A DNA stretch of 64,000 nt from the IMG/VR virus record IMGVR_UViG_3300028887_000067, positions 160,001 through 224,000 of that record; one strand, written 5' to 3'. Under the pieces are notes generated by a model. It was not told the origin of the DNA. It saw only the letters and a program-made list of their open reading frames with translations, and ran no database searches. Positions 41,570 to 42,150 of this stretch are shown here, piece by piece; the stretch's first letter is position 1; every line of letters begins with the position of its first letter. This DNA comes from a virus (Duplodnaviria; Caudoviricetes). The position numbers and the translations under genes are program-made.

Positions 41570-41598
41570 TTGACTTTTGCAAAACGGAATACTATATT
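41570..41598 (+). promoter_or_regulatory. Sigma70-type promoter facing a non-coding structured region
   Basis: TTGACT-17 nt-TATATT. Confidence 0.75.
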
Positions 41599-41604
41599 TT
41601 GGAA

Positions 41605-42150
41605 TATGGACGTGCGCGACGCGTCCGGCAGATTTAAAATGAGCTTAACGGTGCATTCAGCAATCAACTTTTGTTCTAACACCAGGCCGCCAATATCGGC
41701 TCGACGCCGGTTGCCCGTTTGGGTATAGTCTAACGTAGGACAGCGGCTACCTGAACAACGAACGCACCGTGCCTTTGAAAACAAAAGGCGTCCCGCACCA
41801 CAGGGAAGTGTCCGTGACGACGGACATCACTTGGAGATTGCATGCCGGGCGCCAGTCCGGGCCCTATAGTTGCCAGGCCGGCAGGTCTACATTTGCGAGT
41901 GTCCTGCCGGAGTCCGATCAAGGCCGTCCTCGCTTGCAAGGAGGCGACCATGTACACGACTTCTAAACAGCGTAACGACTACGGCGTCAAGTTCACGGGA
42001 ACCATATTCCCGCCGACGATGCCGATGAACGGTCGACCTTTGCCGCTATTCTAGGAAGCGACACGCTGAAACGGACATAACGGGGAGCCGTAAAGCTACA
42101 ACTAACCGCATAAGAAAAATATTGTGTCGTGGCGGGTAGGGTGACCGGCG
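41605..42150 (+). ncRNA. Candidate large structured non-coding RNA (family not recognised)
   Basis: No credible long ORF; more than 10 helices found by eye, with G-U pairs favouring the + strand; own promoter. Confidence 0.55.

Follow-up and report, generated by a model that had tools for sequence, protein, structure and literature searches.

A putative non-coding RNA gene beside phoH in a rumen jumbo phage carries a handle module paralogous to a small-RNA cluster

The stretch of DNA analysed in this study (hereafter, the window) comprises 64,000 nucleotides (nt) of the IMG/VR virus record IMGVR_UViG_3300028887_000067 (Caudoviricetes; positions 160,001 to 224,000), and the subject is a putative non-coding RNA gene at 41570-42150 of the window. 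The window is held by a 308-kb viral contig of a jumbo phage from the rumen, which carries a T4-like capsid gene and a terminase and is incomplete, because strain contigs of the same phage reach up to 475 kb. The host is probably Fibrobacter, because the phage NAD synthase shares 61-71% identity with Fibrobacter enzymes and Fib_succ_major domains are present in relatives of the phage. The RNA stretch is flanked by two genes on the minus strand, namely, a divergent phoH (PF02562, 40529-41500), which has its own promoter-like site at 41562-41534 and appears to lie outside the RNA system, and a convergent 259-aa gene with no assigned function (42154-42933), whose stop codon abuts the RNA 3′ end.

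Between these genes, 41519-42153 is the longest stretch without an open reading frame (ORF) of at least 100 aa in the 308-kb contig, which agrees with the prediction, made earlier from the letters of the window (the original prediction), that the largest gene-free gap here holds a structured RNA with its own promoter. That promoter is present: a sigma70-type site (−35 TTGACT, 17 nt, −10 TATATT) occupies 41570-41598 on the plus strand, the strand of all RNA features below, and transcription would start near 41604-41606. The hexamers are the same in strains with an altered spacer. About eight promoters of the TTGACT-17-TATATT type occur in the genome, and the same architecture precedes the handle clusters described below in a sister strain and in the relative G001, as well as a stand-alone handle RNA in G001.

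The cmscan search proposed together with the original prediction returned no Rfam match for the stretch, either at gathering cut-offs or at E≤10, and the Rfam and ARAGORN searches likewise found nothing at odds with the earlier statement that signatures of transfer RNA (tRNA), transfer-messenger RNA (tmRNA), ribonuclease P (RNase P) and signal recognition particle RNA are lacking. In the sister strain, where a divergent group I intron is present, the same Rfam search detected it (37 bits, E 1e-6), which serves as a positive control. BLAST against 50,697 phages, 36 related viral records and 101 Fibrobacter genomes yielded only a 20-nt match, which falls in the handle. Two covariance models (41858-42032 and 41640-41830), both weak and built from near-identical sequences, gave no real match over 27 relatives and 54 loci, and searching IMG/VR for exact occurrences of three core words gave chance matches only. 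None of these BLAST, covariance-model and word searches found a homologue of the 3′ 375 nt.

Four haplotypes, 95-99.6% identical, were compared. In the core at 41855-42000, 0 and 1 changes were observed per 146 nt, versus rates of 7.5% and 6.2% for four-fold sites in the genes on either side (P<0.001); selection on the sequence is clear in this 3′ core, and recombination between strains could contribute to its invariance. Compensatory double changes were found at 41688/41745, in a branched insert, and at 41627/41846, in a long-range helix, and several single changes keep the pair as G-U on the plus strand. No reading frame is conserved among the strains, and a coding role is disfavoured because of 1- and 2-nt insertions or deletions and the loss of an ATG. 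The purifying selection, the two compensatory changes and the conserved promoter thus support a structured non-coding RNA on the plus strand, and we consider it very probable from these comparisons that the stretch is a genuine non-coding RNA gene.

Folding energy contributed less. Compared with shuffled sequences, the plus strand folded modestly better (z −2.0 overall and −3.6 for 41605-41790), with only −0.9 for the 3′ third; the minus strand gave z ~0, and most of the plus-strand signal came from the 5′ third. Taken by itself, folding energy is weak evidence for an RNA gene. On the plus-strand minimum free energy fold, two compensatory pairs were observed versus 0.1 expected (P=0.007), and five pair breaks versus 10.2 expected (P=0.008).

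The 5′ third of the RNA contains an element here called the handle. Its 5′ side (41645-41663) consists of a UUA bulge, a 7-nt clamp strand (41648-54), 3 nt and a CAGCAA box (41658-63) in a UCAGCAA variant, which is also present in module 3 of the sister strain (L218); its 3′ side (41764-41771) consists of the second clamp strand (41764-70) and a conserved next G. The 20-nt BLAST match in G001 lies in a small-RNA cluster adjoining tRNA-Glu, in which each RNA comprises a 7-bp clamp, 3 nt, CAGCAA, a variable insert and the complementary strand. G001 has five or six such handles (L143:8760-9460, minus strand, and L149), one with the box in a hairpin loop; two of them enclose circularly permuted tRNA-like domains, one of which scores 39 bits against YrlA, where the cut-off is 69. 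The window has the features of this family, including the 7-bp clamp, a spacing of 2-3 nt, the (A/G/U)CAGCAA box and, as flanks, a conserved UA and G. In all 13 handles tabulated, the clamp strands pair, and the window handle is unchanged in all haplotypes, with too few sites for significance. The handle family is absent from Rfam 15 and was not found in the literature searched.

A matrix derived from nine handles that lie outside the window placed 41646-41664 at the top of the 308-kb contig (25.0 versus 13.7 bits), with the partner strand 100 nt downstream; the test is partly circular because four of the nine handles had been retrieved by a pattern that included the motif of the window. An independent test came from a paralogue reached by a synteny walk, with no pattern search, in a 98%-identical sister strain and in DNA missing from the contig. 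The sister cluster (L218:13577-14140) contains a promoter, a 5′ hairpin, three handles, tRNA-Glu and a long hairpin, of which the tRNA alone matches Rfam. Its first module aligns to the window from the −10 box through the end of the handle, and the 5′ hairpin is completely paired in three paralogues despite different stem sequences. Because the sister module aligns and both the 5′ hairpin and the clamp are paired across the paralogues, 41570-41776 is, on sequence grounds, a duplicated leader-plus-handle module, and an origin of the gene from the handle cluster is very probable. The handle is followed by tRNA-Glu in the paralogue versus 375 nt of orphan sequence in the window. The original prediction of a structured plus-strand RNA, possibly of a new class, thereby stands as regards an RNA outside Rfam and needs amendment as regards novelty, the 5′ third being paralogous to the handle RNAs.

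The helices listed in that prediction can all pair on the plus strand, and several are broken in strains. The 5′ hairpin GGACGTG/CGCGTCC (41608-41626, 7 bp, CNNGA loop), a paralogue of the hairpin that leads the small-RNA cluster in the tRNA region, covaries across three paralogues, and the clamp ACGGTGC/GCACCGT (41648/41770) covaries across 13 handles. CCGC/GCGG is supported by a compensatory change, GCCTTT/AAAGGC and TGTCCGT/ACGGACA each contain a strain change that keeps the pairing as G-U, and neither arm of TTGTT/AACAA is altered in any strain. The pairings CAGG/CCTG and CCGGGC/GTCCGG are broken in at least one strain, as are the 3′ closing helices GGTC/GACC, ACCTT/AGGGT and GCGACAC/GTGTCGT; CGGGAA/TTCCCG loses its closing pair in at least one strain. 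The conserved handle box and a long-range helix had been overlooked. This helix, the second strongest, pairs a 5′ arm at 41621-41630 with a 3′ arm at 41843-41852 and shows G-C to U-A at 41627/41846 in L013, L014 and L071; only its 41627-30/41843-46 part is compatible with the 5′ hairpin. The strongest helix on paper, of 12 bp (41705-16/42139-50), was rejected: two of its pairs are broken in L066 and one in L129, and therefore the upper 7 bp at most stand.

The remaining parts differ in how fast they change. The 100-nt handle insert (41664-41763), predicted as a stem leading to a junction with three hairpins, is fast-evolving; apart from the compensatory 41688/41745 pair, most changes and a 2-nt insertion sit in loops, and L066 diverges by 10.5%. 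Candidate assignments for 41771-41789 are the hairpin GCCUUU/AAAGGC or a YUUUGAMAAC element, which resembles the antitermination boxA. Two hairpins (41791-41806 and 41808-41827; 41791-41827 in all) are enclosed by the long-range helix, and one change in them keeps G-U. The nearly invariant orphan core (41855-42000) includes an 8-bp helix (41878-85/41903-10) within a fold that is predicted only, and has no homologue. In the 3′ domain (42001-42152, with a putative 3′ end), the inner helices 42043-48/42130-35 and 42074-79/42123-28 are kept and the outer closing is broken in strains.

The tRNA-rich regions of the sister strain were also inspected. The strain has an array of more than 34 tRNAs, and the group I intron (RF00028) lies there, within an apparent tRNA-Asn gene (L215:12931-13137). 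Three tRNA-like genes of the same locus (L215:11470-11635, 11980-12075 and 12160-12365) have long inserts between the acceptor stem and the T arm and received no call from ARAGORN or Rfam; they are possibly tmRNA-like or other novel RNAs. An RtcB ligase gene (L308:16360-17496) lies 12 kb away from the sister strain's handle cluster, in the midst of dispersed tRNA genes, and counts in favour of the explanation placed first below.

Relatives whose PhoH is ~60-80% identical keep the gene order, with the slot between the genes occupied by a small ORF, by IscB or by other genes. Over the full protein, a metagenome scan with PhoH showed a gap between 99% and ~80% identity, with no relatives inside it. 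Because the slot of relatives holds other genes and no full homologue was found elsewhere, the RNA is, so far as these sequences indicate, an accessory gene of a single phage species. The functional link to the divergent phoH that had been suggested earlier is unsupported, because dozens of relatives retain phoH without the RNA while the slot carries other genes. Most relatives fill the slot with a conserved ORF of ~90-100 aa without a Pfam match (L001:4619-4888, minus strand, and homologues), which can face either way and in some cases is a fusion with a longer ORF; one relative has an IscB-like gene (RRXRR and HNH) upstream of phoH (L004:3654-4937). Elsewhere in the window, 44675-45457 encodes a phage translation initiation factor IF3, with two IF3_N matches.

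A candidate partner for the handle was indicated by a locus (L169, minus strand, 3325-4920) in which two handles immediately precede a gene with DUF2828 and DUF7788 domains. PDB sequence searches with this protein gave no match, and in its AlphaFold model (pLDDT 92) all of the top 11 Foldseek matches were Ro60 structures (best E 2e-8, TM ~0.6); as modelled, DUF2828 folds like Ro60. Y RNAs serve as the tether between Ro60 and PNPase (PMC4201824), and host PNPase works more slowly in vitro in the presence of a phage Ro60-Yrl complex (PMC12135203). Another phage of the group, G034 (L144:900-2784), has a canonical TROVE Ro60 gene preceded by YrlA-like RNAs and without ACAGCAA handles, and the pattern suggests that two Ro/Y systems alternate within the phage group.

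The explanation that we place first, and hold with about even confidence, is a free-standing non-coding RNA gene of ~550 nt whose product serves a Ro60-shaped protein as a Y-like tether or decoy and bears a large effector domain. The front of the cluster (promoter, 5′ hairpin and first handle module) would have been duplicated into the variable slot beside phoH, the handle insert would have expanded to 100 nt, and ~375 nt of unrelated structured sequence would have replaced the tRNA-Glu of the paralogue. A host-type polymerase would transcribe the plus strand from ~41605. The 5′ hairpin would fold first, followed by the handle with its branched insert; the short helix 41627-30/41843-46 would close the 5′ domain and, if the hairpin gave way, may lengthen to 10 bp, and the conserved core and a looser 3′ domain would follow, ending near 42150. 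A ring protein of DUF2828 type and Ro60 shape would dock on the handle, and the rest of the RNA, its larger part, would be the effector that tethers or distracts a further factor, for example a ribonuclease of the host or an RNA-repair enzyme.

Several observations weigh against this explanation, in addition to the partial circularity of the matrix test. The haplotypes number only four and contain no compensatory change 3′ of 41855; on other predicted folds the deficit of pair breaks weakens to P 0.03-0.12, a deficit is seen on the mirrored strand too, and copies mutated at random refold at least as well as L066. As for the partner, no DUF2828, DUF7788 or TROVE gene was found in the incomplete 308-kb contig or in the 355 kb of G001 searched, and no Ro60-like gene is annotated across the ~30 kb extension of the sister strain. 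The 101 Fibrobacter genomes contain a single DUF2828 copy, which is broken, and the literature search found no test of handle binding to DUF2828. That sole Fibrobacter gene (L299, genome G087) is split over reading frames and has three CAGCAA words just upstream. Among the best 120 of ~8,000 DUF2828 homologues, none came from this phage species, and a 511-aa gene near rtcB, considered as a Ro60 candidate, was rejected by sequence. With no such gene in the contig, the sister extension or G001, and one broken Fibrobacter copy, the Ro60-like partner is a postulated one. The RNA may still use a Ro-like partner, which we hold at slightly under even confidence.

The alternatives concern first the number of products. 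The paralogous loci are arrays of three to five handles plus tRNA-Glu, the paralogy ends immediately after the handle and the folding signal lies in the 5′ part, all of which would fit a precursor processed to separate RNAs, namely, a ~170-nt handle RNA and an independent 3′ RNA. However, the stretch has one handle and no tRNA-like unit, and the compensatory long-range pair encloses the handle module and joins it to 41843-46, thereby connecting it to sequence 75 nt beyond. A single large RNA from the stretch is, as read from these sequences, reasonably probable, and processing is an unlikely alternative that still merits consideration. A variant of the large-RNA reading, in which the Y-like handle is grafted onto a new 375-nt structured and possibly catalytic or self-assembling domain and a Ro60-like ring delivers or gates substrates for the RNA effector, is rather unlikely.

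An RNA resembling ROOL or GOLLD, which folds and oligomerises without protein and keeps the handle as an inherited leftover or minor docking site, would be in keeping with a size of ~550 nt, a rumen phage, an own promoter, a non-essential distribution, many competing long-range pairings and the missing Ro-like gene. It is nevertheless improbable, since no ROOL or GOLLD match was obtained at E≤10, the handle is constant among the haplotypes (within the limit of its few sites), L066 breaks part of the 12-bp long-range helix and a kissing loop has no covariation support. A ribozyme, whether degenerate or novel, descended from a group I or group II intron or from RNase P could account for the nearly invariant core and for look-alike words (group I R-like at 41975-81 and S-like at 41724-31, GUGCG at 41612, GAGCCGUA at 42085 and RNase-P-like at 41854). 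Yet the R and S words are nested and in reversed order, the stretch is free-standing without an RF00028 match, a domain V hairpin is lacking, no partner for GAGCCG (42085) occurs downstream, two strains alter the RNase-P-like A at 41854, and Rfam, which finds the group I intron of the sister strain (37 bits), finds nothing here; this origin is very improbable, and a hammerhead reading was considered and rejected. A structured mRNA for a 34-aa peptide (AAGGAGG, 5 nt, ATG at 41950, stop at 42054) is hardly credible, since its perfect Shine-Dalgarno spacing (window 41940-42054) and a frame open in all haplotypes are set against the loss of the ATG in L013, other changes of which two are non-synonymous and one synonymous, and third positions no less invariant than the others.

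Comparison with known systems places the Y-like reading in context. Y RNAs, including YrlA (RF02553, PMC4201824) and Yrl1/2 of the Thermus phage phiLo (PMC12135203), share with the window RNA a docking stem and a variable effector part; the paralogous handles of G001, like YrlA, enclose permuted tRNA-like domains, and handles adjoin a Ro60-fold gene in L169. In contrast to YrlA, the window RNA has CAGCAA in the stem in place of the GNCGAA motif and no tRNA-like domain with D and T arms; RF02553 did not match the window at E≤10. It is also ~550 nt in length rather than the 80-130 nt of Y RNAs and has no adjacent Ro60 gene. The small RNAs with ACAGCAA handles are closer: clamp, box and flanks are the same, and a direct paralogue exists within the phage species. 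The window RNA differs from them in its single handle within a large RNA, its 100-nt branched insert, its 375-nt orphan 3′ part, its distance from tRNA genes and the lack of a DUF2828 gene among those found. Dictyostelid Class I RNAs (PMC7919456) similarly combine a paired short stem of varying sequence, a conserved unpaired motif of ~11 nt and a variable remainder, but are eukaryotic, measure 42-65 nt and have a stem that joins the 5′ end with the 3′ end, and the window RNA has no Rfam match. ROOL and GOLLD, which form RNA-only cages (PMC12286853), resemble it in size class, rumen phage origin, stand-alone gene and dense predicted pairing; it differs in containing the handle module and in lying outside any tRNA island, and covariance models of ROOL, GOLLD and OLE gave no match to it. 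The RNA is thus outside every Rfam family tested, and its working like a Y RNA is suggested at best by analogy.

The weight of the finding is limited because the RNA has a narrow distribution, confined to one phage species, and because its partner gene is missing. Large ornate phage RNAs are mostly without a known partner or origin, and the window RNA carries a recognisable module; its origin by duplication of a small-RNA leader is therefore traceable within one phage species. The handle also offers a candidate protein family (DUF2828, with a Ro60 fold) and a 6-nt box that can be mutated. If the stretch yields one RNA as proposed, the Y-RNA design would have been stretched from ~100 to ~550 nt, and large RNAs would be buildable from small modules. 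If the handle and the ring protein form a grafted ribonucleoprotein with an RNA effector, this RNA would be a bridge between small Y RNAs and the giant ornate RNAs of phages.
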